From Girardia tigrina (lineage: Eukaryota), in contig MQRK01230274.1 in assembly GCA_001938485.1 (NCBI GenBank), positions 1 through 49,437 of the forward strand: a stretch of 49,437 nt of DNA. Direction: 5' to 3'. Shown here in pieces: positions 5,223 to 43,982 of this stretch. The notes beneath the pieces were generated by a model. That model ran no database searches. It saw only the letters and a program-made list of their open reading frames with translations, and was not told the origin of the DNA. Position 1 is the first letter of the stretch. Each line of letters begins with the position of its first letter. The translations under genes were made by a program, and so were the position numbers.

Positions 5223-5801
5223 AAGGGTGGGCCAAAAGTAACTACACAATTTATTTAACCTATAGTTTCTTTTCCCTTTATTAAATTTAACAAACAATAA
5301 AACAAAAATAAAATTTAAAAGTTATATTTTATTAATATATCCGGTTTATTTTCGATGAATGGTAAAACAATCTCTCTGATCATTTGACGATATCTTATTC
5401 CATTCACATTGATTTGGTGACCATCAGTATCTTCGAAAAAATAAGGCCCAATTATTGTTTCAGAAGTAATACCGCACCACACTGTGCATTTTTGGGGATT
5501 TGAAGTTCGTTCAATAACCTCCATGGGATTTTCTGAACCCCAGAACATCCAATTTTGCTTATTTATATACCCGTCCATCCAAAAGTGAGCTTCATCAGTC
5601 ATTATCATTTTGTCAGAAATAATTGAATTATTGAATTTTATTGAAGATTTGATCATAATTATTCCTTTCTCCGTTGTGTATCTTGGCATGATAAAAATTC
5701 AAGGCCCGTGGAATAAAATAATTTTAAAAATTTTAAACAAAAGTAAACCTGAAAAAAATTTTAAACAGAATAAATTGTGTAGTTACTTTTGGCCCACCCT
5801 T
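5223..5801 (-). mobile_element. Internally deleted Tc1/mariner-superfamily element (DD37D/maT-like)
   Basis: Perfect ~31-bp TIRs AAGGGTGGGCCAAAAGTAACTACACAATTTA, TA on both sides; ORF 5315-5689 has TDEAHF..GYINKQN..FWGSENP..TVWCG...IIGPYFF, with HTH and C-terminal catalytic part missing. Confidence 0.9.
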
Positions 5802-7479
5802 TATTTAATGTATTAATATTCAATAAATACATAATTAACATGTATTATCCTCTTCTTGGAGTTAAAAAAGGTGTAGATATAAAAATAACTGTTGTCCTCC
5901 TTTTTAATATTTTGGCCTTCATTGAGATCCGTGAATTCTAATATTTTCATTTACGTATTGATATTTTTCTTCTTAAAGGAATTAAACGTCCTTGGTATCG
6001 GGATTCTAGCGGCTTGAAGCGTGACCTGTTTCTTAAGCAGTCTAAAGTATTTCATGAAAGAATTGTACGTTAATGTCAAAATATTCGTTTCTTTTGTTTT
6101 CCTTAAATTGGATTTGTTGAATATGATTCGATTTGATTATAGTTTGACTGTTGCGAGTCCGAAAGCCTATAGCTAGAGTGACCGGCATTCATGGCGTATC
6201 GGTCTTAAACGATTTCGAATAATGATTTTTTTAAGATATGACAATGGAGAATAATAATTAGCAGCCTTTTTTACATTTTTCACATAAGTTTTTTTAATGA
6301 GCTTTTTCCTTTTAACAGATAAGTTATATCATTCTTTTGTTTAAACCTGTGTATTCTTTATTGTCTTTTCGTTTTTCGCTTTTATTCTTATTTAATAACT
6401 TTAAACATAAAAAAAACATTATTTTCGAATTTTTGAGCTACAAAGTAATTGGAACTTTTTTGAAAGTAATAATATTTAGTTGTAAAAACGATTGAATGAA
6501 TGAGCTGCCGATCCGTCAACAATCGGTTTTTTATATAGAAACAAATGATCAGAAAAAAAGTCCTAAAATACCTGAAACATTATTCTTGGGTACCATAAGT
6601 AAGAAAATAAAATTATTGCTTATTAAATAAATGAATTTAAAAATGTATTTTACTCGACTCAAAAGGAAAATATTTTATAAATAGTCACACAGATTTTAAT
6701 AAATTAGTTTTTCTCAACTAGTTTTATAAAGTCTCATACAGGGATACAAGATTATTTGGTTTTATTTTACTTTAATCTTATGATCTTTTTTATAATATGA
6801 ATAATATTTTAGTACTTTTTACACCAATTATAATTATTTCTTTTTTTCTAATACAAGAATAATGGGACAATTGCTTAAAATTTTTTCAATACACTTTGTA
6901 TCTTTTGGGATTTCCCTGATAACAAAATGGACACTTTCTTTTTTATCTTTTATAAATGTATAAAACATTCTTTTACTCTTGAGATAAATAATACTCAGAG
7001 AAATCTCACAACAAAAATGGAAAACAACCTTTTGTAAACTTTTAAATTACCTTTAACATTAAACAAAAATATCTATTTACTTTTATATTTTTTTAACAAG
7101 TGAGTGTATTTGAGTGTAAATGATAAAATAATCTTAAATTATTTAATAATACTTTTGTATTATTAAATAATTTTGTGTTACCATTTAATTTTGAAACTTC
7201 TAAGACTATTATTTATTTTAATAATATTTGTTTCAAATATTATTTTTTATATCGAAGGGCATTTAATTTCTATAAATTGTAAATGTAAAAATATATTCAA
7301 AGGAAATTTTAGACAACCTAAATACTCTTCATACAAAGTTTATTTAAAATTAGTATAAATGTTAATTCAAACATACAAATAAAGATTATATATCCTTAAC
7401 ATTTTCACTGTAGTCAATGAGGTATGTCTTTCTGCTTACATCTTTTAGGAATACAAATCTTAAAGTCTTTTCTGCATTA

Positions 7480-8520
7480 AAGATGAAAACTGCGTTTTCA
7501 ACAAAGAATGGTCAATATTGTTTTAAAAGAATGCCTTTTGGAATTGCAGCGGCTCCAGCTACCTTTCAGGAATTAATGGTGAAAGTTCTAGGAGATTTGA
7601 ATTGGAAAGAAGCAGTTGTATATTTGGATGATATTTTGATTTTTGCAAAAGATAGAGAAGAACATCTTCAAAGAATACATAACGTATTTGAGAAAATTAA
7701 AGAATCCGGCTTGAGAATAAATCCAGAGAAATGTCAATTCCTAGTAGAAAAAACGAAATTTTTAGGATATGTCATAAGTAAAGAAGGTATTGAGACAGAT
7801 AAAACAAAGATTGATGCAATTAGAAAATTTCAAAACCCATCATGTATCAAACATTTAAGAAGCCTTTTGGGTTTGACGAATTACTACAGGAAATTCATAA
7901 AAGATTACTCTAGATATGCAAAGGTTTTAGAAGGCTTATGTGGTAATACATGTGATGACGCTTTTCTAAATTAAAAGAAAGAATGATTAAGACACCAATT
8001 TTGGCATACCCTGATTTTTCAAGAGACTTTATACTCGATACAGATGCAAGTTTTGATACAATAGGAGCGGTGCTATCACAGAATATATGGAAGAGAAAGA
8101 GTAATTGCATATGGTTCCCATAAAATGAATAAACATGAACTTGGTTATTGCATTACAAGGAAAGAACTGCTTGCAATTTATTATTTCACTCAACATTTTA
8201 AACATTTTTTGTATGGGAAAATATTTTTGTTACGAACGGATCATAAAGCTGTCACTTTTATGATGACTACGAAAAACGCTATTACACCACAGTTTCAAAC
8301 ATGGATAAATTTTCTTAGTGGTCTTGACATAAAAATAGAATATCGAAAAGGTTAGAAACATACAAATGCTGACGCGATATCTAGAAATTCTTGCGAATTG
8401 TGTAGCCAATGTCAGACGATGCATGAAGAAGCCGAGAAAGGAAAGATCAAGACGAGAATTCTTGCATTGAACGAAGAGTCAGAGGGTTTCAAATGGCTAA
8501 AGAATAATGAAGAAGTAATC
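7480..8520 (+). mobile_element. Ty3/Gypsy pol fragment (RT C-terminal half + RNase H), frameshifted
   Basis: KTAFST..RMPFGIAAAPATFQ, YLDDILIF, FLGY, LGLTNYYRKFI; then FILDTDASFDTIGAVLSQ, KELLAIYY, RTDHKA, YRKG*KHTNADAISR; no LTRs or integrase visible. Confidence 0.95.
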
Positions 8521-9629: not shown

Positions 9630-10060
9630 TCACCAATATTGTGTATTAACAACATCAATATGAGTTTTACAACATTTATTAATATCACAAGCCAATTCAC
9701 TATTTGATATTTTTCTAGATCGATATATTTCTGAGCTTATACTAATTATTTTCAATAAATGAAAATCTATTAATAAAAATTATTAATTATAAAGAATCTA
9801 ATTGGTTAAAATTAAATCTAAACATTTTTTTTAAAAAAAGAACATATTAAATTAATATATTAAAATTTTAAATTACATTAAAAAATAAATAATACATTCA
9901 AAAATTATTTTAAATCTTTTTACTTTAAAATTAAATTAAATTATTTTTAATTAGTAGGAATCAAAGAAAATACCAATCATCCATCTGTGTAGGAGAGGCA
10001 CAATCCGAATCAACATACAATATGCACAATATCAACACGCAATTCAAAACATTCCTCACA
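9630..10060 (-). repeat. TGTGAG-terminated family B, terminal fragment
   Basis: Ends ATTCCTCACA at 10060; motif CCATCTGTGTAGGAGAGGCACA at ~9982; reverse complement matches 21507-21811 plus 23001-23100. Confidence 0.85.
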
Positions 10061-12202: not shown

Positions 12203-13004
12203 TACCTAACCATTATTTGCAGTATAACAGATTTAAAAATTTGTATTTTTTATCAAATGATTTGTAAATCACAGATCAAATGCATATTTTGAAGAAAAAT
12301 TATTTGAAAATCATTATATAATTTAATATTTATTTAAATACTGACGTAAAAACATATTTTTGTCGGCAATTAATTAAAAGGGACGAAAATTGTCGGGCAA
12401 AAACAAACCAGCATTAAATTTTCCCTAAAGTCGATTTTGTTTTTTGATTCCAGATCATTACGAATGCCACAAATAAACGAATATTTCATTAATTTCCATT
12501 AACGAAATTAAATTTATTTGTCAAAAATGATTTTCGAATTTATATAATAATTAATTTCTTAATATATAATTTCTGTTTTATTAAAAAAATTTTATTTCAT
12601 GAAAGATATTATTTTATTTATTTTAAAAATAAATAAATTCATTTATTTTAACGATTATATATAGACTAATCTAATAAATTTTATTCAAATATAATTAATT
12701 TATTTTCAAATTTTATTACATGAAAAATATTTATTCAATTTCATGAGTGTTTTTAATTTTAAATTAATATTGTTAGTAATATTTAGATATTATATTTTTA
12801 TACCAAATTATTCCTTTAATTTTATTTACCATTATATTATTTTTGGTTTTTTTAAGCAAAACATTTTCCAACAATTTTTTAAATGATAAAACTTAGAAAA
12901 TATAAAAAAACAGAAAATATTTACGCTATAAATTCTCAACGAACTTATTGAGAATTTTGGATTAGGGTGATTTCATGCAATCGATTATATAATCTTTATT
13001 TTTG

Positions 13005-13035
<31 letters not shown>

Positions 13036-13075
13036 TAAGAAAATGAATAACAAACGCCATTTAAAAAGTTTTTTA

Positions 13076-13119
13076 TTTGTCAAAACATTTTTCGCCATTA
13101 CGGCATCATAAGTTGTGAA
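13076..13119 (-). ncRNA. Minimal hammerhead ribozyme, family 1, core-mutated
   Basis: Minus strand TTCACAA-CTTATGA-T-GCC-GTAAT-GGC-GAAA-AATG-TT-TTGACAA; CUGAUGA changed to CUUAUGA. Confidence 0.7.
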
Positions 13120-13283
13120 GTAAATTTCAAATTACAAGTCATTTATATGCCAGATTGACTATTACGCAATTAATCTTTTTTTTAATTAATATTAAAAGAT
13201 TTTAATATTTAAAAGATTAAAAAAAATGATTAATTGTGTAATAGGCAATGCGCCATATAAATGACTTGTAACTTGAAATTTAC

Positions 13284-13327
13284 TTCACAACTGATGATGC
13301 CGTAATGGCGAAAAATGTTTTTACAAA
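13284..13327 (+). ncRNA. Minimal hammerhead ribozyme, family 1
   Basis: TTCACAA-CTGATGA-T-GCC-GTAAT-GGC-GAAA-AATG-TT; core intact, stems I and III degraded. Confidence 0.75.
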
Positions 13328-13474
13328 TAAAAAACTTTTTAAATAGCGTTTGTTATTCATTTTCTTTACAAATAAATTGCCATTAAATCTAAATGTTATA
13401 TATATATATATATATATATATATANNNNNNNNNNNNNNNNNNNNNNNNNNNNNNNNNNNNNNNNNNNNNNNNNN

Positions 13475-13509
<35 letters not shown>

Positions 13510-13539
13510 GAGGTAAATTAATAAACAATTATTAATGAG

Positions 13540-13580
13540 TGACCTGAAGATGATGTTTGATCCGCCGAAAAATATTGTCT
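13540..13580 (+). ncRNA. Minimal hammerhead ribozyme, family 2
   Basis: TGAC-CTGAAGA-T-GAT-GTTTGATCC-GCC-GAAA-AATA-TT-GTC; stem I GAC/GTC. Confidence 0.7.
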
Positions 13581-14087
13581 TGAAGCATATTTTTAAATGG
13601 ATGAATTTTGTTTTTAATAAATAATTTTCATCCGGATTTAAGCTAATTCAATAAACAAAATTTAAATAAACAAAAATGAGCAAATATCAACTTTGAAGTG
13701 TGAAATTAAGAAAACTGAGAGATAATAATAAAAAAAACAGTTATGTCAAAATTACAAAAAACGAAGCTGAAGAAAGAATATGAGGAATAAATCAAAAGAT
13801 TATTTTTAATACAGAGATTACTTTTTGAAAAATTGAACAATTTATGAAACTTCAAAGGAGATTGTAACCAGGATTTACAACAGATTTAACGAAAGAAAAG
13901 GTTGTAAAAGAATAATTATTGTGTTTTTGTAAATTTAACCTTCAATTATCTAATTTAATTAGAATGAAAAAAGTAAATAACTACTTTTTATATATAAAAA
14001 TAAATATTTTGAAACTGGGATCTATAGAAAGAAAACTGGTTATATACAACCCCTACCAGTTTTTGTGAACTTATATATAAAAGAAAT

Positions 14088-14785
14088 ATGATAAAAGGTT
14101 TGATCTATAGATCTTGGACACTTTCGTCTACGTACGCTAAAGGTAATGAAAGTATTGATAAGTTAATGAATTTACTTCATAAAAATGGATATTCCAAATC
14201 GATAGTTGAAAAATTAACTCGTGAAACTGTCGATAAATTCATTAAATCGGAAAATGAAAAATCAAATACAATAAATAGCGACAACTACAAAAATCAGATA
14301 AATAATAATTATGATAATGTTGGTTTTGTTTTGATTGTTCCCTACTCTGAGGGTTTCAGGAAATTCAAAAACTCTATTTTGAAACATAATGAAAATAATT
14401 TATTAAATTTAAAAATTGTATGTAGATCATGTAAAATAGGAAGTTTGTTTAGTAGTAAATCTATCACTCCAACTGGGTTATGTTCCAATTTAGTTTATCA
14501 ATATAAATGTAATGGATGTGACGCCACATACATCGGAGAGACTTGTCGTCATCTCTGTAAACGGATTCTGGAACATAATCACAGGGAAAGTGATAGCAAT
14601 ATGCTCAACATAAGAAGAACTGTTTGAAGAGTAAAGTTGATGTAAGTAATTTTAAGATTTTGAGTTCACAATTTGATAATTACTGGGAGAGGGTGATGTG
14701 TGAAGCATTGTTGATCAAATCTTTTGATCCTAAAATCAATGTCCAAACACCATCCTCTTCAACTTTATTGAAAGTATTTTCATGA
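14088..14785 (+). pseudogene. Penelope-like RT C-terminus + GIY-YIG endonuclease, frameshifted
   Basis: VY..C..C...YIGET.R.L..R..EH motif; frameshift near 14610. Confidence 0.9.
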
Positions 14786-14850
14786 TTTACATGACATAAT
14801 GATTACATAAACATTGCTTTGATATATATATATATATATATTGTTAATTC

Positions 14851-14880
14851 AGTCTAATGATGATGGTTGATCCGTCGAAG
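14851..14880 (+). ncRNA. Degenerate, truncated hammerhead relic, family 2
   Basis: CTAATGA-T-GAT-GGTTGATCC-GTC-GAAG just downstream of the Penelope stop codon and (TA)n. Confidence 0.5.
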
Positions 14881-14899
14881 TTAATAACAATATATTTTG

Positions 14900-15497
14900 A
14901 TGAAATTTTTTTGTTTTTTTAAAATAATATATTTAATAATTACCATTTTACCGAAATATGTATTTTTTGATTTTAAATTTATTATAATTATTAAGAAGAT
15001 TGAGACAATTATTGTTTGAAAATTTATTATTATAACATTTGAGTCCTCACAACTCTCGGAAGATCGTTTACAGTTTGACACGATTCTCTAATTGGTTTTT
15101 TATTTCTATATTTTTATAATGATTATTCGAACAACTTATCTAAATCTTTCTAAAATATTTAATATTCGAAACTATTTATTAAAATCAGTTATTTTAACCA
15201 TTTTGTTATAAGAACTCTAAATAATAAAAAATATATTATCAAATTGTAAAAAATAAATAGAAATTTAAATTTTATTAGTTTATTTTATATCTAGTTAAAT
15301 ACTTTTCTTTATTTTTCAAAAACATTTAAAGTTTATTTTAATTACTAATTTCAAAAATTTTAACTTATCAGATTATTATCATTTTGTTATTGTTATTTTA
15401 ATTATTTTCGAATAGTCAATCACTGTAAATACAAAAAATACCAATTTCCATCTCGGTGGGAGAAACACGATTTATTCCTCAACATATATTCCTCATA
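14900..15497 (-). repeat. TGTGAG-terminated family B, terminal fragment
   Basis: Ends ATTCCTCATA at 15497; motif CCATCTCGGTGGGAGAAACAC; ORF start MSNCKRSSESCEDSNV at 15081. Confidence 0.75.
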
Positions 15498-16550: not shown

Positions 16551-16810
16551 AGTGTCTTCACTAAAAGCATTTTGAATTTCGTTATAAATTTAGAGATTTA
16601 TTTAAAAATTGTTTTTTTATTCATAAAGTAAAAGAGTTCGAACCTGAAAACTTTAATACGCCATTGAAGATGAAATATACTCAATAATGAAATTGTGCTT
16701 TGATTGAAACATTTTTTTATTAAAACAAGCAAGACACACGTTATCGGAAAATACAAATAAAGTTTAAAGTAAATTATTATGATTTCAATTTTTAATAGTG
16801 TAAAAAAATG

Positions 16811-16890
16811 ACCGCAGTTGGCTACACCGGATTTCGTCCGATCTCCGAAGTTAAACAAGCAAGGACCGCGTAAGTATTTATACAAAGGTG
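16811..16890 (+). pseudogene. 5S rRNA-derived segment (pseudogene or SINE/LINE head)
   Basis: ACACCGGATTTCGTCCGATCTCCGAAGTTAAACAAGCAAGGACCGCGTAAGTATT matches the metazoan 5S core (ACACCGGTTCTCGTCCGATCACCGAAGTTAAGCA...GTTAGTACTT); box A recognisable, box C decayed. Confidence 0.8.
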
Positions 16891-18429
16891 AATATAGGTC
16901 AGGTCAGGTAAACTGTCTGCTACAGGTACCATGTAAACCTGTAATACTTGTCCCATGGTTGAATGGGTGGCGACTAAACCTACTCCCTCACCCAGAGAAA
17001 CCTGGGTGAAGAGGGTGTACGGACACCTGACAGGATGAAAAACAAAACATAGCAAAGGGCGGATGAACTCCTCGGAGCTATCGGCCATTCATGCACGGAG
17101 AGGAGATAGGCGCCACCAGATAACTTGTCTACTGAGACACTCAAAAATATGTAGTGTGAAACGTAGATAGAAAACGTTAATTTCCTTTTGCTGCTTCTGA
17201 TATTTAAATTCTTAAACAATTTCAAGCTTCAATTCTATAATTGATCAAGTAACATGATACTCTAACAAACAACCACAACAGTAGCAATTACTTGAGGAAC
17301 GCTATCTAAAATTTATCAAGATTAAGATGAAACCTTATAAAAAGCAATAATGACCGATAATAAATCTTCTGAAGCAATATATTCGCAAACAATTTACTTC
17401 TTACCATTAATTCTAGCCGACACTTGTAATTGTATTTTGAGTTATTTTAGAAAGAAATGATCAAACTTTCGTTGCGAACTGAAGCGGTACAAGATTCCAA
17501 AGCAAAGAAAAAGCTCTACACAATTGAAAAACAAACAAGATTAAAGAGATGTGTACGTCAAATGAAAGACGATTCAATTTGATATTCCATAAAGATGGTT
17601 ACATCCGTTTCGTATATTTTTTTGTTCTTAATATTCAAAAGAACGCCAATTCAATGGGTTCGCTCAATTTTGTCTGGTAAATGTCAAATCCTAAAGAAAA
17701 AAATTTTTTAAAAGAAATAAATTCCAAAGAAAAAATTCTTAAATGAAGCTAATTCCAAATAAACTGCGTAATAAAAATATTATAACTATAAAATTAATAT
17801 TGCTATTATATTAATTGCTTATTGTTGTAAATAAAATTATTTTCCCGTTCGACTAATATAACTCTCATGAGATGGAAGAAATACACCAATTATTCATCCA
17901 AAATAGTGTTTTAATTATTTGCCTCAGTGTTAACATAATTATATAAATAAACAAATAAATTGATTTGACAGCGACAAAATTCTTAAAATGTTAATATACC
18001 AAGGAAATTTCGATACAAACATGATTAAGGACTGAAGTAATTTTCTTGTTGTAATAGTTAAAAATTACCGGAAAATTGGTTAAAACAGATAAAATAATTA
18101 TTTCTTATTAAACATTAGTTTAGCAGTCATTGAAAGATGGGCCTGTGATCATTATGTAACAGATCTTTAGATCCTAAGAATTAATGTGCAAACGGGTCTC
18201 TCGACAACCTTGTTCAGCGTTTGTAGACCACACAACTATTCATTGATTACACAATCACTGCTTGCCTATATAAGCAAAATTCCAATTCATTTTTTTTATT
18301 TTATACGTCAATAAAAATAAAAAATATTTCGTTAAATGGTTTGTTTAGGTTTTAAAAACTAAATCGACACAATTTTATTATTTGAATGTATAAAGTTACT
18401 TTGTGTTCGATAATTATTTGTGAAATATA

Positions 18430-18730
18430 AAACAATATTCATCCATTTAAAATAAATATTTATTGACAATATATTTCGACGGATCTACTGTCATCTTCAG
18501 GTTACTGATTAATAATTTAATTCCCCTGTAGATAATACAAAAACAATGATTATGTTACCGATTGCATAAAATCACGCTTATCAATAATTCTCAATAAGCT
18601 GGTTGTGACTGTATATTGAACATTAATTTAAAGCCAATGTGACATAGTTAACAATGCTTCATACTACACTCTCTCCAAACAACTATCGAAATACTTACTC
18701 AGAATTATCATATTTTTAATGTTTAACTTT
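18430..18730 (-). mobile_element. Penelope-like 3' end/pLTR fragment
   Basis: Minus-strand ILSKYFDSCLERV*YEALL....INVQ matches the C-terminus at 14660-14750; followed by a hammerhead. Confidence 0.8.
18464..18504 (-). ncRNA. Minimal hammerhead ribozyme, family 2
   Basis: TAAC-CTGAAGA-T-GAC-AGTAGATCC-GTC-GAAA-TATA-TT-GTCA; stem II GAC/GTC; palindromic AATATATT stem III. Confidence 0.8.
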
Positions 18731-19186
18731 AAAAATTAATCAAAATTTTTAGAATTATCGAGGATTTAAAAAATAAAGATTGGCAAATTGATTATTAAAT
18801 TTACAAAGGAAAGTGAAAAGTTTTTTGAATTTCATTTATAAGAAAAATCATTAATTGTGTTATTTATTACTTCAAATATTAATGCAACTAACAGTATATT
18901 AAATTAATAATAAGATATCTAGTATTTTATGTTTTTACTTTTTATGATAGAGTCTACTAAGCGAATAAAAAATAAATAATCAAAGTTATATTATATATTT
19001 TATCATTGTTAGTTGTTTTGGTGAGTTCATAAAATTTTAAAATTTAAAATCTAATCAATTTAACAATGAAATAATTACATTTCTGAATGTCGATCTATAG
19101 ATTATATTAAAATAAGATTTTCATAAAATAGCGTTAAAATTTAATTTATATAACAATAAATTCTAAAGTAGATTTTTAAGGTTTAA

Positions 19187-20549: not shown

Positions 20550-21060
20550 AGTATACGTATTCATTATTGATCTTGAGAAAAAGTTTGACAGTGTTCGTGA
20601 AGAACTGGGAATTACTGAAAAGGTACTCGATTTGATCAAACATGTTCAAGAAGGATTTACAGCATCTCTCGGAATAAGTGAGTTTTAGAAACATTGATGC
20701 ACTAAACTTTGTTTATTCAAAATTGCATTTGATAAAATGAAAAACAATGCTGTTTCATAAATTTGCTGGCGGAGTTTAGCTGACAGAGCACGAAATATAT
20801 AATTATCAAATCAATTGATTAGCATATGCTGATGACCTCTGTAACTGATGATAATTGCTGATGATATATCGCGAAAAATCCTGAGATACTAGATTCACAT
20901 TTTTTTATTTTGGACTGAAAATAAATAAAAATAAGTCCAAAATTATGTAGATTATGGTTTATTCAAAAAAATATCACTAAAAAATAAAATAGTGAGGTGA
21001 ATATATTGTAGAATGGCTAAATAAATATTAAAGGTATCTTGGAAGTATATTGATATCTAC
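20550..21060 (+). mobile_element. Decayed non-LTR retrotransposon reverse transcriptase
   Basis: Ordered motifs FIIDLEKKFDSVR (20560), LAYADDL (20819), FGLKINKNKSKIM (~20909), RYLGS (~21032). Confidence 0.8.
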
Positions 21061-21813
21061 AATGTTTTATGTGTTATTTGCGTAAACAGGGATTTGCAAC
21101 CAGTATTACAAAGTTTTTTCGTTCATATCGTACTAAAGACTAACCGAAAAGAGTCTAATATAAAACTGATAATTTATTATGGGTAACTACCAAATGGATA
21201 TGACCTTATTAGAAGTCTTTCTAAATAACTACATAAACGTACATCATGATATATTAGAGTTACTTAGATCTAATGGAGATTTAGAAGAGTTTAAAAAGAC
21301 TTTATTTTGAAACAGTGGTGGATTCAAACAGCATCCTAAATGTTTTAAATGGAAAAGAATACATGATATATAAGAGCACAATATTACTTATCTGAACATG
21401 CTACAAATGCGTGAAGCTTTGATTGCTTGTGCCATCCTATTGTATTTTAAAATAATGTGAAGAGCAAAAAAAACTGAAAGCATGAGACAAAATACACTAA
21501 TGCCCTTGTGAGGAATGTTTTGAATTGTGTGTTGATATTGTGCACGTTTTATGTTGATTCGGAATGTGCCTCTCCTACACAGATGGATGATTGGTATTTT
21601 CTTTGATTCTTACTAATTAAAAATAATTTAATTTTAAAGTAAAAAGATTTAAAAGAATTTTTGAATGTAATATTTAATTTTTCATGTAATTTAAAATTTT
21701 AATACATTAATTTAATATGTACTTCTTAAAAATGTTTAAAATTAATTTTAACCAATTACAATCTTTATAATTAATAATTTTTAATAAATGTTTTTCATTT
21801 ATTGAAAAAAATA

Positions 21814-24420: not shown

Positions 24421-24659
24421 GGTACTCTACCACAGCGAGCCATTTTCACCGTCAAATTACATAAAAATTCGTCTACTGATTCCGAATATGAATTGTCGAT
24501 ATTAACCACTTTAGAACAAATCACAAACATTTTTATATATCAATACAAATACATTTTTTAGCAAAAAAAACACTCTTTATCGAAATGAACACTTCATTTA
24601 TTATTTTATTTTTATTTAAAATCTCAATCCAGAACAATATTAGTAATAATAATAATAAT

Positions 24660-25157
24660 TGCGAGAAGTGGTTGCAACATCAATATCAGAATTCATTATT
24701 TTTAACACCAAAATTTATTAAATGATCAAAAATTCACATACTTAAACAAATTTTTATGTTAATTCAATTATCTCGCCATAAATTAATCTATTAAATTCTT
24801 TTCCATTCAATTTTTTAAATCTTGCAAATTTATTAAATAATTTTCACATTAGAAACTAAAAATTTATTTTTAAATTTATTCAAAATCTTGAAAATTTATT
24901 AAAATAATTTTCACATTAAAACTAAAAAAAATATTTTAACATTTATTTAAAATTGTTTCATACTTCTATTAAAATATATAAATTGTTATGACTGTAAAAA
25001 TATTTTTATTTATAAATAAATATTTAATATTTAATGGTTTTCTTATCATTTTTAATTTTAAGATATTTAATAGATACATTAAAAAGATATTTTTTTACTT
25101 TTAAATTAAAAAAATAATAAATTATTCTGGGGAGATACAAATTTAAATTAACCCCTC

Positions 25158-25160
<3 letters not shown>
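24660..25160 (+). repeat. TGTGAG family A, complete short copy
   Basis: TGCGAGAAGTGGTTGCAAC...AAATTAACCCCTCATA, flanked by ATAAT on both sides (within AAT-rich sequence). Confidence 0.85.
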
Positions 25161-28235: not shown

Positions 28236-29305
28236 TAAAATAAATTAAAATTGAAAATATTAAATTATTTAACTGAAAATCAAAACTTACGATGTAGATT
28301 AATGATATAGTAAAAATAGTATTAAATTTTTTGGAAGTGGTTTCATTCAGTTTATTCGTTTTACAAACATGAAATCAGCTCGTTAATTTGAACAATTTGA
28401 AAGATAATTGTGCATTTGATCGAAAGGATGTTAATGTAAATCCTGAATTGATAACTATGGGACTAAAGTGTTTCTTTTCAAAAAATCACCTGGTAAATTT
28501 ATAAAGCCTTATATTAGCTTGAGGTATAAAATACCCGCTGTTTTATTGCTATAAACACTGCTTCAAAACATCGCTTATCTTTTCTTAAACCTAATTTCAA
28601 AAACAAATTTTGAAAAATTTAAAAGTATTTAAAGATTAAAAAATTGTTTCAATTTCGTTATTTAAATTGAGATGGCTAATCAATCACCAGCAGAACGATT
28701 CGCAGACTTCCTATGAATAAATGCTTGTTTCCAAGGTCTGATATTCCTTGTTGCTACGGCAGACACGTGTGTGCACGTCAGAGTGTTGTGTTGTACATGT
28801 TTGTGTGTTTGTATGCATGTAGTGATGGTCATCAGTCGGTTAATAACATGTTATAAAAACAACATATGTTTTGAAATATTTAAAATAAATTAATTAGATA
28901 AATAACTTGTTTTTTAAGCTATTATAAAATTATTTTTATTATTTTTTTCCTATAAAAATATTTGGTTGAATGTTTATAGAATATATTAAATTCAATTAAT
29001 GATTCTGAAATAGAGTTTTCCTGTGACTTTACTGATAGTTAAGCTTATATTGTTGTTCGTAATAAAAATGGGGGTTTTGTCAACAGAGAAAACCAATTTT
29101 ATTAAGAAAAAAGTAAAAGAATGTTTTCTATTTCCGTATTTTTTTTCTTTTATTTAAATCCCGTAATTTTTCAATTATTTATTTATTATTTTTTTGATAT
29201 AAATTTTAATTTTTTTTAACTTTAAATGATTGAGAAATAATTTTTAAATTTAAAAAATAATTTTAAAAAATTAATTTAAAAATTATTTCTCAATCATTTA
29301 AAGTT

Positions 29306-29558
29306 GAGAATATGTTTTGCAATAAATCACATACTCCTTTAGGATTGTGTTCGGACATTGTTTATCAATACACATGTAATGGGTGCAATNNNNNNNNNNN
29401 NNNNNNNNNNNNNNNNNNNNNNNNNNNNNNNNNNNNNNNGCAATAAATCACATACTCCTTTAGGATTGTGTTCGGACATTGTTTATCAATACACATGTAA
29501 TGGGTGCAATGCCACATACATCGGAGAGACTGCCCGTCATCTCTGCAAACGAGTCCAT
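29306..29558 (+). mobile_element. Penelope-like GIY-YIG fragment (partly duplicated around an N gap)
   Basis: TPLGLCSDIVYQYTCNGCNATYIGETARHLCKRV, similar to 14465-14575. Confidence 0.9.
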
Positions 29559-29592
<34 letters not shown>

Positions 29593-29603
29593 TATCAATT
29601 TAA

Positions 29604-30002
29604 ATGTCACAAGTGTGTCGTCATCTCCGCACTAGAATAGCTGAACACACCCAATTGAGTAGGAATAGCTCGATTCTAGATCACATTACAAAATGCAGAA
29701 ATAGAGATAAAGTTAACTATGAAACTGAATTTACAGTTTTGAAGAAAAATTTTGAGACGTATCATGAGAGGGTAGTCACAGAGGCATTATTAAACCATGC
29801 TTAAATGTTCAAAGTGAATTATCCAATCATATTAAAATCTTTTAATATTAATTTAAAAAAAAGAAAAAAAGATTAATTGCGTAATAATCAATGTGCCATA
29901 TAAATGACTTGTGATTTGAAATTTACTTCACAACTGATGATGCCGTAATGGCGAAACATGTTTTGAGAAATAAAACTTTTAAAATGGCGTTTGTTATTCA
30001 TT
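29604..30002 (+). mobile_element. 5'-truncated Penelope-like element: GIY-YIG C-terminus + pLTR
   Basis: CRHLRTRIAEH..SILDHITKC..ERVVTEALL..LNVQ, then a 3' UTR with hammerhead; (TA)n on both sides. Confidence 0.88.
29927..29969 (+). ncRNA. Minimal type I hammerhead ribozyme, family 1, best-preserved copy
   Basis: TTCACAA-CTGATGA-T-GCC-GTAAT-GGC-GAAA-CATG-TT-TTGAGAA: stem I 6/7 pairs, stem II GCC/GGC, palindromic AACATGTT stem III, GUU triplet. Confidence 0.88.
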
Positions 30003-31120
30003 ATATATATATATATATATATATTAAAATCGCTAAATAAAATCTATACACAAATCTATGTACAAGAAATAAAAAGAAAACAATTTAAAAACATCTTACC
30101 AATAAAGCATTGGATTAAAATAAATTTATTTTATCTTCCTTAAAGCAATTTACATCAAACACAATGACTTCAATTCTCGCAAACTAACCATTGGCAGCTA
30201 TCGATTGTCGTTTGAGAAAACAGTACATTACGAGGTAACGGTTTTGATAAAGATAACAATTAACACCCAACCAAAAGCTAATCTTTGAGATGAAACTTCT
30301 GACACTCAATGTAATACACTATATCTATTTTATATTCATAAAAATATATAAAAATTATATAAATTTCTGAATAAATACTTAAGTTTTATTTTGATTTAGA
30401 TCACGAAGTTATTAGTATTCTAAATCCAAAATTAAATAGAAAGGTCGTATTTTCCAGCATTATTATTTTCCAAATAAAATGAGTCGAAGAAAACCAGAAA
30501 TTATTTATAAAAACATGATTTTGTAGTTTTAAAAAATTTTTATTGATTTTTTTTCTGTACTTTGATTAAAAATATTTTAAAGGTTAATCAATATTTTACA
30601 GAAATAAATGAGACAATTAATTTCTTTTTGAATCAAGAAAATGTTTTAAAAGAAAAAGAGATAAAACTTATAAATATTTCATTAGATTGATTCATATTGT
30701 TTTAACTAAACTTAGTTTATCATAAAAATCATTTAAAATATAATATAATAAAAAGAATAAATAAAAAACATATAAATATCTTTTCGTAATAACTAAAAAT
30801 AAAAAAAAATCCATACCAAATTTATAATAAATGTATTGAATGATTTAAATAAATTAAAAAAAAACTTACTAATCAATTTTGTTTATATAAGTAAACCATG
30901 AATAATTTATGGCCTGTTTATGTATCTACTTTTTATATATTATTCTAATTTATAATTCGTGGACAATATCAACCTGCCAAACAAGACGGAATTTTCAGAT
31001 AAAATTTTATAAATTCATACTTTTAAATTAATAATAATTAAATAACTTTTGAATATTAAATAAATATAGCTTATTTAATTATAAAAAATAAATTATTGTT
31101 AATAAAATGGGGATGATGAC

Positions 31121-32559: not shown

Positions 32560-33163
32560 TGTGAGAGGTGGTTGCAACATCAATATCCGAATTCATTTTT
32601 TAACACCAAACTTTATTTATATAACAACAATTCACATATTTTAAACAAATATTTTCTGTTAATTTAATTATCTCGCCACAAATTAATCTATTAAATTCTT
32701 TTCGATTCAATTTTTAAAATCTTGCAAATTTATTAAATACATTTCACATTAAAACCAAAAATTTATTTTAAAATTTATTTAAATAATACTTCTATTAAAA
32801 TATATAAATTGTTTTGACAATAAAAAGATTTATTTATAAATAAATATTTAATACTTAATGGTTTTTTATTATTTTTAATTTTAAGATATTTAATAGATAC
32901 ATTAAAAAGATATTTTTTTATTTTTAAATAGATATTTATTTTTTTATGATTTTCTTTTATTATATCATTTTTATTTTTTTTCAAAATATTTAAAAAACAC
33001 ATTAAAAACATGTTATTTTTAAATAAGTATTTGATTTTTAATAGTTGTTTTATTATTTTTAATTTTAAAATATTGAATAAGCATATTAACATTAAAATAT
33101 TTTACCTTTTAAAAAAATAATAAATTATTCTGGCGAGATAAAAATTTAAATTAACCCCTCATA
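32560..33163 (+). repeat. TGTGAG family A, complete short copy
   Basis: TGTGAGAGGTGGTTGCAAC...AAATTAACCCCTCATA; flanks CACTA/TACTA. Confidence 0.88.
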
Positions 33164-37899: not shown

Positions 37900-39060
37900 A
37901 TCCTTCGATTTTCGAAACGGCTTTGTGGTTTTACTCTGGGATTTAGGTTTTTACTCTCATTTCGTAATCGAGGAAACGTCATTTTGGAATAAAAAAACAA
38001 AACAAATAAAGTTAAACTATTCATTGATAAACTGCATACAATTTCAACATAAAATAAAAAAGTCACAATACTTGATATAAAATTTGTATTTAGTTTCCAT
38101 CAATAATTGGTTCCGAACGTAGATATTTTGGAAAAAAATCATCATATTGCTATAATAAACATTACAATTCACCTCACTTATTAGGCTTGCGAAATTCCTC
38201 ATACTATTCAATAATTGCTCTTCATTATTAGGAAGAGATTCTGCAACTAGTAATTTCCACTTTGCAAACACAAGCTCGATAGGATTCACTTCTGTTTTCA
38301 AAGGGCTTATCTGGAACTAAATATTTTACAATACCATGCTTATTCATGGCACAACAGACTGCAATATTCTTAGATCTCATACCTGGCTCAATATAACAAG
38401 CAGGTGTTCCTTTAATGAGCGCCAATCTTATTCCTCATCATCACATTAAAACCCAATTCGTCAATGAATATTATATCGGATCTGATTGAGTAAGTATTTC
38501 ATAAAAATTTGCTGCTTATTTTTGTGTTTGATCAACAACTTCCGGTTTACGTCTTCTCGCAGATATAACTGTCACTCTTTTTAAAGTGTATGAGAAGTTT
38601 TTAATATATTTACTGGTAATTTTATTTTTATTAGTAATTTTTTTATTGGTAATTTTAAAGGTGATGCCGCAGTCATCATCAATACATAAATGCTGTTTGC
38701 TCTGAATTTAATGATTTTTTTTCTTTTGTTCAACTTTTAAATTTTTCTCATAGCGGCCTTCTTCTTTATATATCGTAATGATCGACGCAACGGTAGTGTA
38801 TGGGTTATTAAAAATATCTGCAATCGATTTAATAGATTTTCCTGAATCGTAAGCATCCACTATTAATTTTCTCATTTCGTTTGATATTGCCATTAAGGAT
38901 ATCTAAAATGTAACAAAAAAATTAATTTAAATTTTGTAAAAAAAATTTTATACATATAAAGTCACTTTTATTATCTTTATTTTAGAAATTGTATAACTTT
39001 TTTTATTACGAAATGACGTTTCCTCTATTACGAAATGAGAGGTAAAACCATGTATCAGTG
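37900..39060 (-). mobile_element. IS630/Tc1-like transposon with broken transposase
   Basis: HTH ORF 38708-38893; DIIFIDELGFN (~38450-38480); NPIELVFAKWK (~38255-38285); inverted repeats TCTCATTTCGTAATCGAGGAAACGTCATTT (~37955) / AAATGACGTTTCCTCTATTACGAAATGAGA (~39011). Confidence 0.88.
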
Positions 39061-41296: not shown

Positions 41297-41625
41297 AATC
41301 AGATCCGAAAAATATAATATTCATTGACGAAGTGGGTTTTAATGTGATAATGAGGAATAAGATTGGGTGCTCATTGAAAGGTACACCTGCTAGTTATATT
41401 GAGCCAGATATGAGATCTAAGAATATTGTAGTCTGTTGTGCCATGAATAAGCATGGTATTGTAAAATATTTAGTTCAAGATAAGCCCTTTGAAAACAGAC
41501 GTTTTTGCATCTTTATTAAGCAGTTATTTAAAGAAAATTTAGCACACAAAGCCATAATAGTAATGGATTACGCATCTTTCCATAAGCATGCCAATACCAA
41601 AGAAATTTTTAACGCGAATGTCTCA
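41297..41625 (+). mobile_element. Second fragment of the IS630/Tc1-like transposase
   Basis: IIFIDEVGFN..GTPASYIEP..KNIVVCCAMNKHG..IIVMDYASFHK; close to 38290-38490(-) and retains the second Asp region deleted there. Confidence 0.9.
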
Positions 41626-42272
41626 AAACACGGGCTCCGATGACTTGTCTCAGACTTCATTTTCTTTGGAAGTTATTCACACAGAAGCCGCTATTCTGAT
41701 AAATTTCCCTTACTATCAAATAGATAGAGAATTTTCAATGTCTCGTTTATAGTCGTAATATTTAATTGAAGCTGTTCTTTATATTTTTGTCACAAATTTA
41801 GGTTTTCTTAAGAATGTTTCGAATAGAAGTCACATGTCTACCTGGAAAAAATGTGGCTAATTATTTTTTCCAGCTTTCTTGTGTTAATGGATTAAAACAC
41901 TTGATAGGCTTTTTTACTGACATTCGTAGCATTTATCAATGCTTTTTTGATGTTCTTTCTCTCTATTGTTGAGATTTCAAGCATTATTTCTTGTAACTGT
42001 CTTGATAAATTTTTTCTTGTATTCCTGATCTCTACATCAAAAGCGTAAGTCTTTCCATGTTTAATTCGAGCAATCTGATCATAGACTGTCGGATTGAAGG
42101 CACATTTATGCCAAAATAATCTTTAATTGCTTTAAAGATTTGAAACTCATTTGAGAAAATGACAAAATTAGCGAAATGTTTATTCACTGCATGCAATACA
42201 TACGGAAAATAATACACTAAAATGAATGGCATAACATATTTAGTTTCAAAATTAATCATAGCGAAAAAAATT

Positions 42273-43594
42273 GACCCTGTTTTTTTGACCCTGCTTTGTT
42301 TTGACCTGAGTTTTAGTTTAATTTTCAGTTTAGTTTAATTTAATTATTTTTTTTTATTTTTGATGGTTTTGAACCCATTTTTTAGTTTAAGTTAATTACA
42401 TTTTTCTTTTAAACGGTTTTGGTCCTATTTTTTTATAATTTAATTTTATGAACTTTTTAGGGGCATTAAGAAAACACGAACCTTTTTTATAACAATTGGA
42501 AAACACGAACATTTCGTATAAAAATTGGACAACATGAACTTTGATTATAAAAATTGGAAAATACGAAGTTTTTTTTAAAAATTGGAAAACACATTAACTT
42601 TTTCTTCAAAATTGGACAAACTAACTTTTCTTTGATAAATGAATTGATAAAAAAATTAATGAAAATTTAAAACACGATTTTGAATATTTTTATTTTAGAC
42701 GGTGTCGACTCCTATTTTTAAATTTTTTAAATTTAAATGAATTACTTTTTTTTATTTTAGATAATTTTTTACTTAATTTTATTATTGTTGTTTAAGCAAA
42801 GACTTTTCGGTAAAATTTTTAATTAATTTAATTTAACTATTAGGCTAAATTATTTTTCAAAAATGGACTAGATTTTATCCAAACAAGGGAAAAGAATGTA
42901 CGCACATGAAGAGTATTTGTACTCTTTCACAAAGAATTTTGCCGACAACAGTCAAATTACTGTAAGGGCAGAATTTGAACAAAGGTAGAAAATGGTGAGT
43001 TTTTAACTATTGTAACAGTCCATTGCCACGACTCTTGTGTAACAAACGTAAAAAGTAGCTCGACGAATTACAAAAATTAAAGAACGTGCTGTTGCAACTC
43101 AAGAAATTCTATCCCAAAATATGAATGAATGTTCACAAAATATTCTACTGTCAGTACAAGGGATTTTTCCAAGACATAATGTAATACGTCAAGTGATCCA
43201 GCGCATCAGAAATGCCTATAACACGGTCCCGGTTCAGCCAATTAATAGAGAATCCATTGAATTACCTGAATCATTTACTCTTTTTGAGAAGTTTCCGAAC
43301 CATTTTGAGAAATTCTTGTTGACTGACTCTGGGTTAGGAGACCATGATATAATTTTAATTTTCGGACGCGAAAGCATTGAACTTTGGTTAGATCATGTTC
43401 GAAAAATCTATGTTGACGGAACTTTTAGCTAGAAGCCACATATGTTTTCTCAAGTGTTTGTTATTTTGGCTGAACGTGGAGAGTTTGTTTTACCAATTAT
43501 GTATGCTCTTTTGCCACACAAAACTGCTGAGACGTATGTAGAATGCAGAGAAACAACCGGAGTCAAAACGGTAGGGTCAAAACAAACTGCTTCC
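42273..43594 (+). mobile_element. Mutator-like element (MULE) with truncated transposase
   Basis: 42863-43540: KQGKRMYAHEEYLY (FLYWCH-like start), IFG..IYVDGTFS*KPHMFSQVFVI..PIMYALLPHKTAETY; inverted termini built of TTTTGACCC repeats; AAAAATT on both flanks. Confidence 0.88.
42468..42630 (+). repeat. ~30-bp subterminal tandem repeat (AAAATTGGAAAACACGAAC...) in the MULE
   Basis: Five to six degenerate units readable directly. Confidence 0.8.
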
Positions 43595-43878: not shown

Positions 43879-43982
43879 TTTAGGGTTTAGGGTTAGTGTT
43901 TAGCTAGGATTAAGGTTAGGGTTATTGTGAGGGTTAGGGTTAGGGTTAGAGTTAGGGGTTTTGATTAGGGGTTATGGTTAGG
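43879..43982 (+). repeat. Degenerate interstitial (TTAGGG)n tract
   Basis: Several exact TTAGGG units among single-base variants. Confidence 0.85.

Follow-up and report, generated by a model that had tools for sequence, protein, structure and literature searches.

Introduction

Penelope copies with an inverted pLTR have been described before, among others in rotifers. The excerpts of PMC3846280 on which we draw report Penelope copies in which a head-to-head inverted pLTR shares a 15-bp overlap with the direct one, with palindromes located at the inverted junction, a tail of 31 bp on one of the pLTRs and insertion into another Penelope; the route proposed there is self-priming on an antisense template. 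In the excerpted text of PMC8557442, an inverted 5'-truncated copy, a one-sided tail of 30-40 bp and microsatellite targets are presented as general PLE features, and the mechanism that generates inverted pLTRs is called open. The excerpts of PMC12910113 contain nothing on inverted pLTRs.

Two further lines of work bear on such structures. Dual minimal hammerheads, 100-700 bp apart and on opposite strands, were reported in 2014, and the same source, again in excerpt, states that minimal PLE hammerheads cleave only as same-sense dimers, and weakly (PMC4209133). At the level of the enzyme, a Poseidon protein cleaves AT-rich DNA on both strands and extends each of them, two reverse transcription start sites bound the tail, and cleavage by the ribozyme is not needed in vitro (PMC11167929). 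Here we analyze a palindrome that is the known inverted-pLTR Penelope structure, with both of its copies truncated to the pLTR.

Results

A Palindrome of Two Family-1 pLTRs Splits an Older pLTR

The window, that is, the whole 49-kb stretch of DNA that was analyzed, is AT-rich eukaryotic DNA with three assembly gaps, and the neighborhood contains pieces of at least four Penelope families. The longest inverted repeat in the window has its arms at 13026-13183 and 13220-13377, which are 91% complementary. When the arms are scored without their TA flanks, the palindrome spans 13037-13366, with 125 of 134 core positions identical between the two arms, and it sits as a whole within one contig. On each strand, the 371 nt of 13030-13400 fold as a single hairpin (-188.8 and -197.8 kcal/mol), the former value corresponding to a z of -27.7, with none of 100 shuffles as stable. 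A sequence-only reading of this DNA had described a hairpin made of two inverted copies of the family-1 pLTR, and the complementarity of the arms, the fold and the shuffles all bear this out, as does the fact that both arms copy sequence found at 29829-30001. The features of the locus, and of the copies elsewhere in the window with which it is compared, are as follows.

12930-13004 (+): left half of the host family-2 pLTR, comprising the last Penelope ORF codons and the start of the 3' UTR
13005-13035: (TA)n, left target flank
13037-13208 (-): left arm, inverted family-1 pLTR
13084-13112 (-): left minimal type I hammerhead relic
13186-13218 (+): 17-bp tandem duplication at the junction
13188-13209: apex, a 10-bp perfect hairpin with a 2-nt loop
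~13217-13366 (+): right arm, direct family-1 pLTR (3' UTR with hammerhead)
13291-13319 (+): right minimal type I hammerhead relic, core intact
13367-13396 (+): 30-nt extension, on the right arm only
13397-13424: (TA)14 at the contig end, right target flank
13425-13474: 50-N assembly gap between two TA runs
13475-13506: (AT)16 after the gap
13507-13640 (+): right half of the host family-2 pLTR, with a degenerate hammerhead at 13544-13576
13981-14910 (+): third-family Penelope copy, 5'-truncated and frameshifted
18400-18745 (-): family-2 paralog without insert, used as empty-site reference; hammerhead at 18500-18468
29273-29560: fourth-family Penelope piece, 82% identical to P0003 over 39 aa
29590-30001 (+): family-1 reference, with the GIY-YIG C-terminus, a hairpin at 29829-29848, a hammerhead at 29934-29962 and (TA)n on both sides

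The left arm contains the last four ORF codons and the stop codon and carries no tail, and the right arm overlaps it via the apex hairpin. That this insert splits a family-2 pLTR, as had been claimed, is confirmed by comparison with the paralog. Once the insert and the TA tracts are removed, the two host halves give an unbroken, in-register alignment to the 18429-18609 copy (147 of 180 positions), and each half outscores all 300 shuffles against the family-2 paralog. Comparison with this empty site reveals no loss of host sequence and no duplication of flanking DNA. Since the flanks align in register and nothing of the host is lost, the geometry given by the sequence-only reading is correct: an ORF-less inverted pair of Penelope pLTRs, nested inside another pLTR. 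Its remark that inverted pLTRs are a known Penelope feature also agrees with the excerpted PMC3846280. It had overlooked the 30-nt extension of the right arm, the native apex hairpin and the 17-bp tandem duplication at the junction.

Within the (TA)n flanks, no target-site duplication can be made out, and one of them adjoins a gap. Both family-1 insertions have (TA)n on each side, and six of the nine TA tracts of at least eight units, which are not independent of one another, lie within 15 bp of Penelope pieces, while these pieces cover about 6% of the window. TA is thus the usual neighborhood of family 1 in the window. The tracts may grow during or after insertion, since long TA runs are lacking at the equivalent positions of the family-2 paralog and of the related proteins.

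As for the gap, the right arm stops 28 nt before its 50 Ns. The other 50-N gap of the window has a 71-nt exact overlap on both sides (29319-29510) and is an assembly duplication; the gap at 13425-13474 is therefore probably a placeholder. Rfam matches to mir-297 and mir-3149 at 13393-13510 correspond to the TA repeats around this gap and were discarded. The host pLTR itself begins with a perfect 10-bp hairpin (12930-12957), which is absent at the matching site in the 18500 paralog and is marginal, 3.3% of background positions scoring as high.

Family 1 Points to a Penelope/Poseidon-Type Element

The family-1 reference is an ordinary 5'-truncated, non-palindromic copy. It lies between (TA)14 and (TA)11 (29561-30025) and directly follows the GIY-YIG frame of another family, the rest of which was not found downstream. 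Upstream of the 29953 motif, the 29590-29845 frame shows 95% identity to database protein P0007 and has its last C-terminal residues in common with it. P0007, a fragment of 280 aa, begins at the end of the reverse transcriptase (RT), without an N-terminus. It ends in a GIY-YIG domain with CCHH, two cysteines being inside the motif and two histidines later, for which the Pfam match is below the gathering cut-off (E 0.0011).

Among P0001-P0006, six relatives of the third-family frame, RVT_1 is above the cut-off in all and GIY-YIG in one. In the 70 residues before the GIY-YIG motif, none of the seven proteins has a CX2-5CxxC or CxCX5C linker. The excerpted text of PMC8557442 uses the absence of this cysteine linker, together with CCHH, as the criterion for the Penelope/Poseidon clade. 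With no cysteine linker, with CCHH present and with a C-terminal GIY-YIG endonuclease lying upstream of the 3' UTR, the protein sequence points to family 1 being a Penelope/Poseidon-type element.

The third-family copy comprises the end of the RT, a GIY-YIG endonuclease that extends to 14782 and its own pLTR with (TA)10, in which a decayed hammerhead is found near 14854-14880. Its frame (13981-14782) shows 89-95% identity to P0001, and P0007 is 42% identical to it. The pLTRs of families 1 and 2 have no significant DNA similarity, 228 of 300 shuffles reaching the alignment score. The window frames were identified as Penelope via database relatives and not by direct Pfam matches: the 199-aa frame at 14028 gives only a sub-threshold DUF2172 match and the 32-aa piece at 29464 gives none. 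A PDB search with P0003 returned only weak matches to retron and group II RTs.

We also considered 12930-14910 as a single pLTR-ORF-pLTR element and rejected this, the ORF C-terminus and pLTR being different from the host pLTR. When the host 5' pLTR is aligned to the 3' pLTR of this stretch, 6 of 300 shuffles reach the alignment score, and 13640-13980, taken as a possible Penelope N-terminus, has no significant match to P0001-P0006.

Both Arm Hammerheads Are Damaged

The hammerhead-core pattern occurs three times in the window (13090-13117 on the minus strand, 13286-13313 and 29929-29956 on the plus strand), with zero expected from 100 shuffles, and the core starts of the two arm hammerheads are 179 nt apart. 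Since the window has no Rfam match to a hammerhead family at E<=1, the assignments are based on pattern scans and on the published minimal PLE hammerheads. The motif at 29934-29962 has an intact core, an unpaired U before helix II, a palindromic helix III (6/6) and 10 of 13 helix I pairs. Judged by its sequence, the 29953 copy is a typical minimal type I Penelope hammerhead and the best preserved in family 1.

The cores in the two arms face outward, as the sequence-only reading had noted; its description of a hammerhead on each strand goes too far. The left core reads CTTATGA, with a G5 to U change at 13110, and fails the strict core scan, being found by the scan that tolerates one mismatch. 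G5 is an essential base of the hammerhead. The left relic has in addition a C to A change at helix III position 15.2 (13089) and retains 9 of 13 helix I pairs, and the right relic has the same change at 13314 and 8 of 13 pairs. In neither arm does the helix III hexamer remain self-complementary, one G-C pair of helix I is gone from both, and the helix III self-duplex is at +1.8 kcal/mol in each, versus -4.6 kcal/mol in the 29953 copy.

Predicted folding goes in the same direction. The helix II probability is 0.83 in the 29953 copy versus 0.0 in the full hairpin on either strand, and it is also 0.0 in the predicted nascent transcript of the palindrome. With outward-facing motifs, the antisense arm comes first in every transcript, and this arm, on either strand, is modeled to pair with the ribozyme. 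By these predictions, the palindrome is no working double ribozyme and should not self-cleave. The host hammerhead at 13544-13576 is damaged too, with a mismatch in helix II and a non-palindromic helix III. Elsewhere in the window, 20829-20876 (+) has three CTGATGA words before one GAAA; it is found by the loose core scan only, fails the helix scan and is probably not a hammerhead. The hammerhead core had 0 matches in a scan of prokaryotic genomes, a result that says nothing on a eukaryotic repeat.

The Arms Share Changes That Support a Common Source

The two arms differ from each other at 9 of 134 core positions (~7%), the left arm from the 29953 copy at 8 of 132 and the right arm at 11 of 132, with three changes private to the left arm and six to the right. 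Compared with this third copy, both arms have five substitutions and one 2-nt indel in common, and they both read GAAAAATG where the 29953 copy reads GAAACATG, exactly as had been reported. Two of the five common substitutions break ribozyme helices III and I. The three sequences form a star, in which private changes of the third copy would mimic states common to the arms, and only the changes that damage helix III and helix I can be polarized as derived. Because both of them damage ribozyme helices, they are probably derived and inherited from one source RNA or locus.

The common changes therefore support a shared source RNA or source locus, not specifically one molecule. The proposal that both arms came from a single template stands to this extent only: two ribozyme-damaging changes are common to the arms, but the arms resemble each other no more than they resemble the 29953 copy. 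Each of the nine differences between the arms is on one side only, the pattern that decay after insertion should give, and two of the nine are of the RNA-editing type.

The Apex Lies on a Native Hairpin and One Arm Carries a Putative Tail

The apex coincides with a hairpin that the family has natively. In the reference copy, 29829-29848 forms a perfect 9-bp stem with a 2-nt loop over the last family-1 ORF codons and the stop codon, and it is the only perfect stem of at least 9 bp in 29440-29999; window-wide there are 20 such stems (0.41 per kb). The apex hairpin of the palindrome is this native hairpin plus one base, and the left arm ends at 13208, the equivalent of 29829, which is the first base of the native stem. 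Taken alone, this position of the apex is suggestive and not decisive, since a hairpin matching the native one in strength lies within 20 nt of 8.5% of background positions. The observed center corresponds to a clean fold-back at the native hairpin plus 6 extra nt, which are part of the 17-bp tandem duplication. The apex loop is oriented as in the left arm, so that it was the left-arm strand that ran through the hairpin. The junction as a whole (13186-13218) is present in one copy in the 49-kb window.

At the outer ends, a distance of 5-6 nt separates the terminus of the left arm from the 29953 copy's 3' end, and the right arm reaches 30 nt further. Since these 30 nt are absent from the left arm, the right arm is no plain copy of it. 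We infer that 13367-13396 is a Penelope "tail," its size and position being as in the excerpted PMC3846280 and PMC8557442. There is no second copy of this extension in the window, and its alignment to the ORF ends of families 1 and 2 is not significant (168 and 25 of 300 shuffles, respectively, reach the score).

Five other Penelope 5' ends were compared: one shows a clear fold-back, one a marginal one and two show none, while the last is unscorable in TA. Four non-microsatellite hairpins score at least 14, and the top two are this palindrome and 29218-29305, where sequence from inside the ORF is duplicated in inverted orientation, as a perfect 33-bp repeat, at the point of 5' truncation of the fourth family. 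The latter looks like a snap-back at a 5' junction, and it may be of assembly origin, since its arms are identical and a gap is 85 bp away.

Discussion

Comparison with Described Systems

The locus is most readily set beside Pen2a_Av and Pen2_Av of Adineta vaga (PMC3846280, excerpted). As in these elements, there is a head-to-head inverted pLTR with an overlap at a short palindrome, a one-sided stretch at the outer end (a tail of ~31 nt there and a putative tail of 30 nt here), insertion into a Penelope and an AT-rich target; the inverted copy is 5'-truncated, and the palindrome is at the junction of the two copies. Unlike in these elements, there is neither an ORF nor a second direct pLTR, two inverted pLTRs being all that remains, and a target-site duplication is unreadable inside the (TA)n flanks of the palindrome.

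The Cercyon PLEs of Schistosoma mansoni (PMC4209133, excerpted) likewise have two minimal type I hammerheads on opposite strands (179 nt apart here), with an unpaired base before helix II and a palindromic helix III, which here is found in the intact copy. However, helix II is 3-4 bp here versus 7-8 bp in Cercyon, and both arm copies are damaged. PAc, the Poseidon of Anolis carolinensis (PMC11167929), shares the Penelope/Poseidon domain order and the AT-rich target, and it has two 3' end points approximately one tail length apart, as does our locus. A further likeness is that PAc does not require its ribozyme for insertion. In PAc, the ribozyme overlaps the start of the ORF and the tail lies in the ORF.

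Finally, the palindrome resembles the non-LTR retrozymes of animals, as described in the excerpted texts of PMC7229834 and bioRxiv 10.64898/2026.07.22.740005, in being ORF-less, within 150-450 bp, low in GC, equipped with a type I hammerhead and derived from or related to Penelope pLTRs. In contrast to the palindrome, which is head-to-head and damaged, retrozymes are head-to-tail, with same-sense active ribozymes and circular monomers (PMC7229834, excerpted). No tandem array of the unit is present, its two cores are on opposite strands, and neither arm is modeled to provide a complete hammerhead (the left arm has G5U, and helix III is disrupted in both). With the arm ribozymes on opposite strands, no transcript carries two sense ribozymes, as retrozymes need. 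The suggestion of a ribozyme-flanked non-autonomous unit thus finds no support in a locus where the ribozymes are on opposite strands, an invariant base is changed in one core and the junction is seen once in the window.

Origin of the Palindrome

Very probably, the palindrome is a single, heavily 5'-truncated insertion of a family-1 Penelope/Poseidon-type element in the TA-rich site of an older pLTR, joined head to head and now decaying. That it was a one-off event is the best reading of one junction copy in 49 kb. We infer the following order of enzymatic steps. The family-1 GIY-YIG endonuclease would cut a TA site within the older family-2 pLTR, and the family-1 reverse transcriptase would make two short copies of the 3' end of the element, beginning at a near and a far start site 30 nt apart. 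The copies would then be joined head to head via the 9-bp hairpin over the ORF stop codon. The likeliest route to this joining, which takes up about half of the weight of the explanation, would be for synthesis to be primed at each of the cut strands and for the two cDNA ends to anneal at the self-complementary hairpin. Alternatively, the antisense strand might fold back at the hairpin and prime itself, as in the published model, or the cDNA might snap back. A pure snap-back of the left arm was rejected as sole route, because the extension of the right arm could not have come from the left arm. After insertion, the arms would have drifted ~7% apart. The unit encodes no protein, and outside read-through transcription would yield a double-stranded hairpin of ~165 bp as a by-product.

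As one more example of a described Penelope insertion structure, the palindrome matters little as such. It has modest value as a minimal and legible example of the making of inverted pLTRs by Penelope elements, for which two features can be scored per locus: the arm that retains the loop in its native orientation and the arm with the tail. Here, loop and tail are on different arms, which speaks against one arm being simply a copy of the other. Counted genome-wide, this pattern would help to choose between two-strand priming and self-priming. Were the junction to prove multi-copy, the palindrome would be a new kind of non-autonomous Penelope derivative.

Some of these findings could also be read in the light of amplification. 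Both ends of the palindrome are family-1 3' ends, which are thought to be recognized by the proteins of the element, the two ribozyme-damaging changes are common to both arms, and in-trans integration of sequence between pLTRs is reported in the excerpted PMC3846280; the palindrome might then be a mobile non-autonomous unit that is copied whole by the family-1 proteins, a fold-back counterpart of the retrozymes. We regard this as very unlikely, given that the junction is seen once in 49 kb, that the other family-1 copy is an ordinary 5'-truncated one and that the nine arm differences are one-sided, as in neutral decay. Moreover, opposite-strand ribozymes cannot release a monomer, and a hairpin of -189 kcal/mol would presumably be a poor template for reverse transcription. 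Equally little credence goes to the fuller version in which an amplifying, ORF-less fold-back Penelope derivative, trans-copied into (TA)n and with self-silenced ribozymes, acts as a hairpin source of small RNAs against its parent family. Our literature search, which covered listings and some of the papers in them, met no amplified ORF-less palindromic Penelope family. That the hairpin of the locus now supplies siRNA or piRNA against family 1, an idea close to the dsRNA/piRNA source proposed by the sequence-only reading, would be compatible with the single-insertion reading and is unlikely, the nine arm differences bearing no sign of selection for pairing. In its favor, a stable hairpin of ~165 bp is available on both strands, the locus is within a cluster of three Penelope families, and siRNAs at inverted regions of rearranged Penelope copies are described for transgenic Drosophila in the excerpted PMC3681739.

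The palindrome could also owe nothing to retrotransposition, if a single copy had later been duplicated at the DNA level by fold-back repair. Such events are reported to use an apex on a short inverted repeat too, and the common ribozyme-damaging changes could predate a duplication. Yet the host halves are collinear, with flanking DNA neither lost nor duplicated, and both arms stop at family 3' ends. Furthermore, the extension is on the arm without the native loop orientation and, for this reason, cannot be copied from the other arm, which leaves fold-back repair highly improbable. We find it scarcely more credible that the palindrome or its nesting is an assembly artifact, created by joins via TA repeats or by a longer element hidden in the gap. 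The right arm does end close to a 50-N gap bounded by TA runs, and inverted Penelope structures trouble short-read assembly (PMC8557442, excerpted). However, the differences at 9 of 134 arm positions and the unequal arm lengths are unlike a read-level fold-back, the unit is within one contig, the host sequence resumes in register past the gap, and the other 50-N gap is an overlap with no missing sequence.

Other Repeats and Fragments

The window contains several other mobile-element fragments. A reverse transcriptase fragment (Pfam RVT_1, E 2.8e-24) is found at 7414-7974 (+), which we take, by its motifs, to resemble an LTR retrotransposon. A DDE_3 transposase fragment (E 1.1e-15) has an inverted copy with 95-96% identity ~2.9 kb upstream (38288-38476, 41299-41643). 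Two other frames have no Pfam matches, 5315-5698 (-) and 43052-43432 (+); going by motifs, the former resembles a Tc1/mariner-type and the latter a Mutator-type transposase. Two dispersed repeat families have members in opposite orientations, one at 9745-10060 and 21507-21812 and the other at 1-500, 24632-25160 and 32635-33163.

A full-length but weak match to 5S rRNA is present at 16807-16909 (+) (30.2 bits, below the gathering threshold of 38; E 0.026), which is probably a 5S pseudogene or a 5S-derived repeat. Lastly, 43880-43982 is a degenerate TTAGGG array of ~17 units with 66% matches, telomere-like but internal in position.
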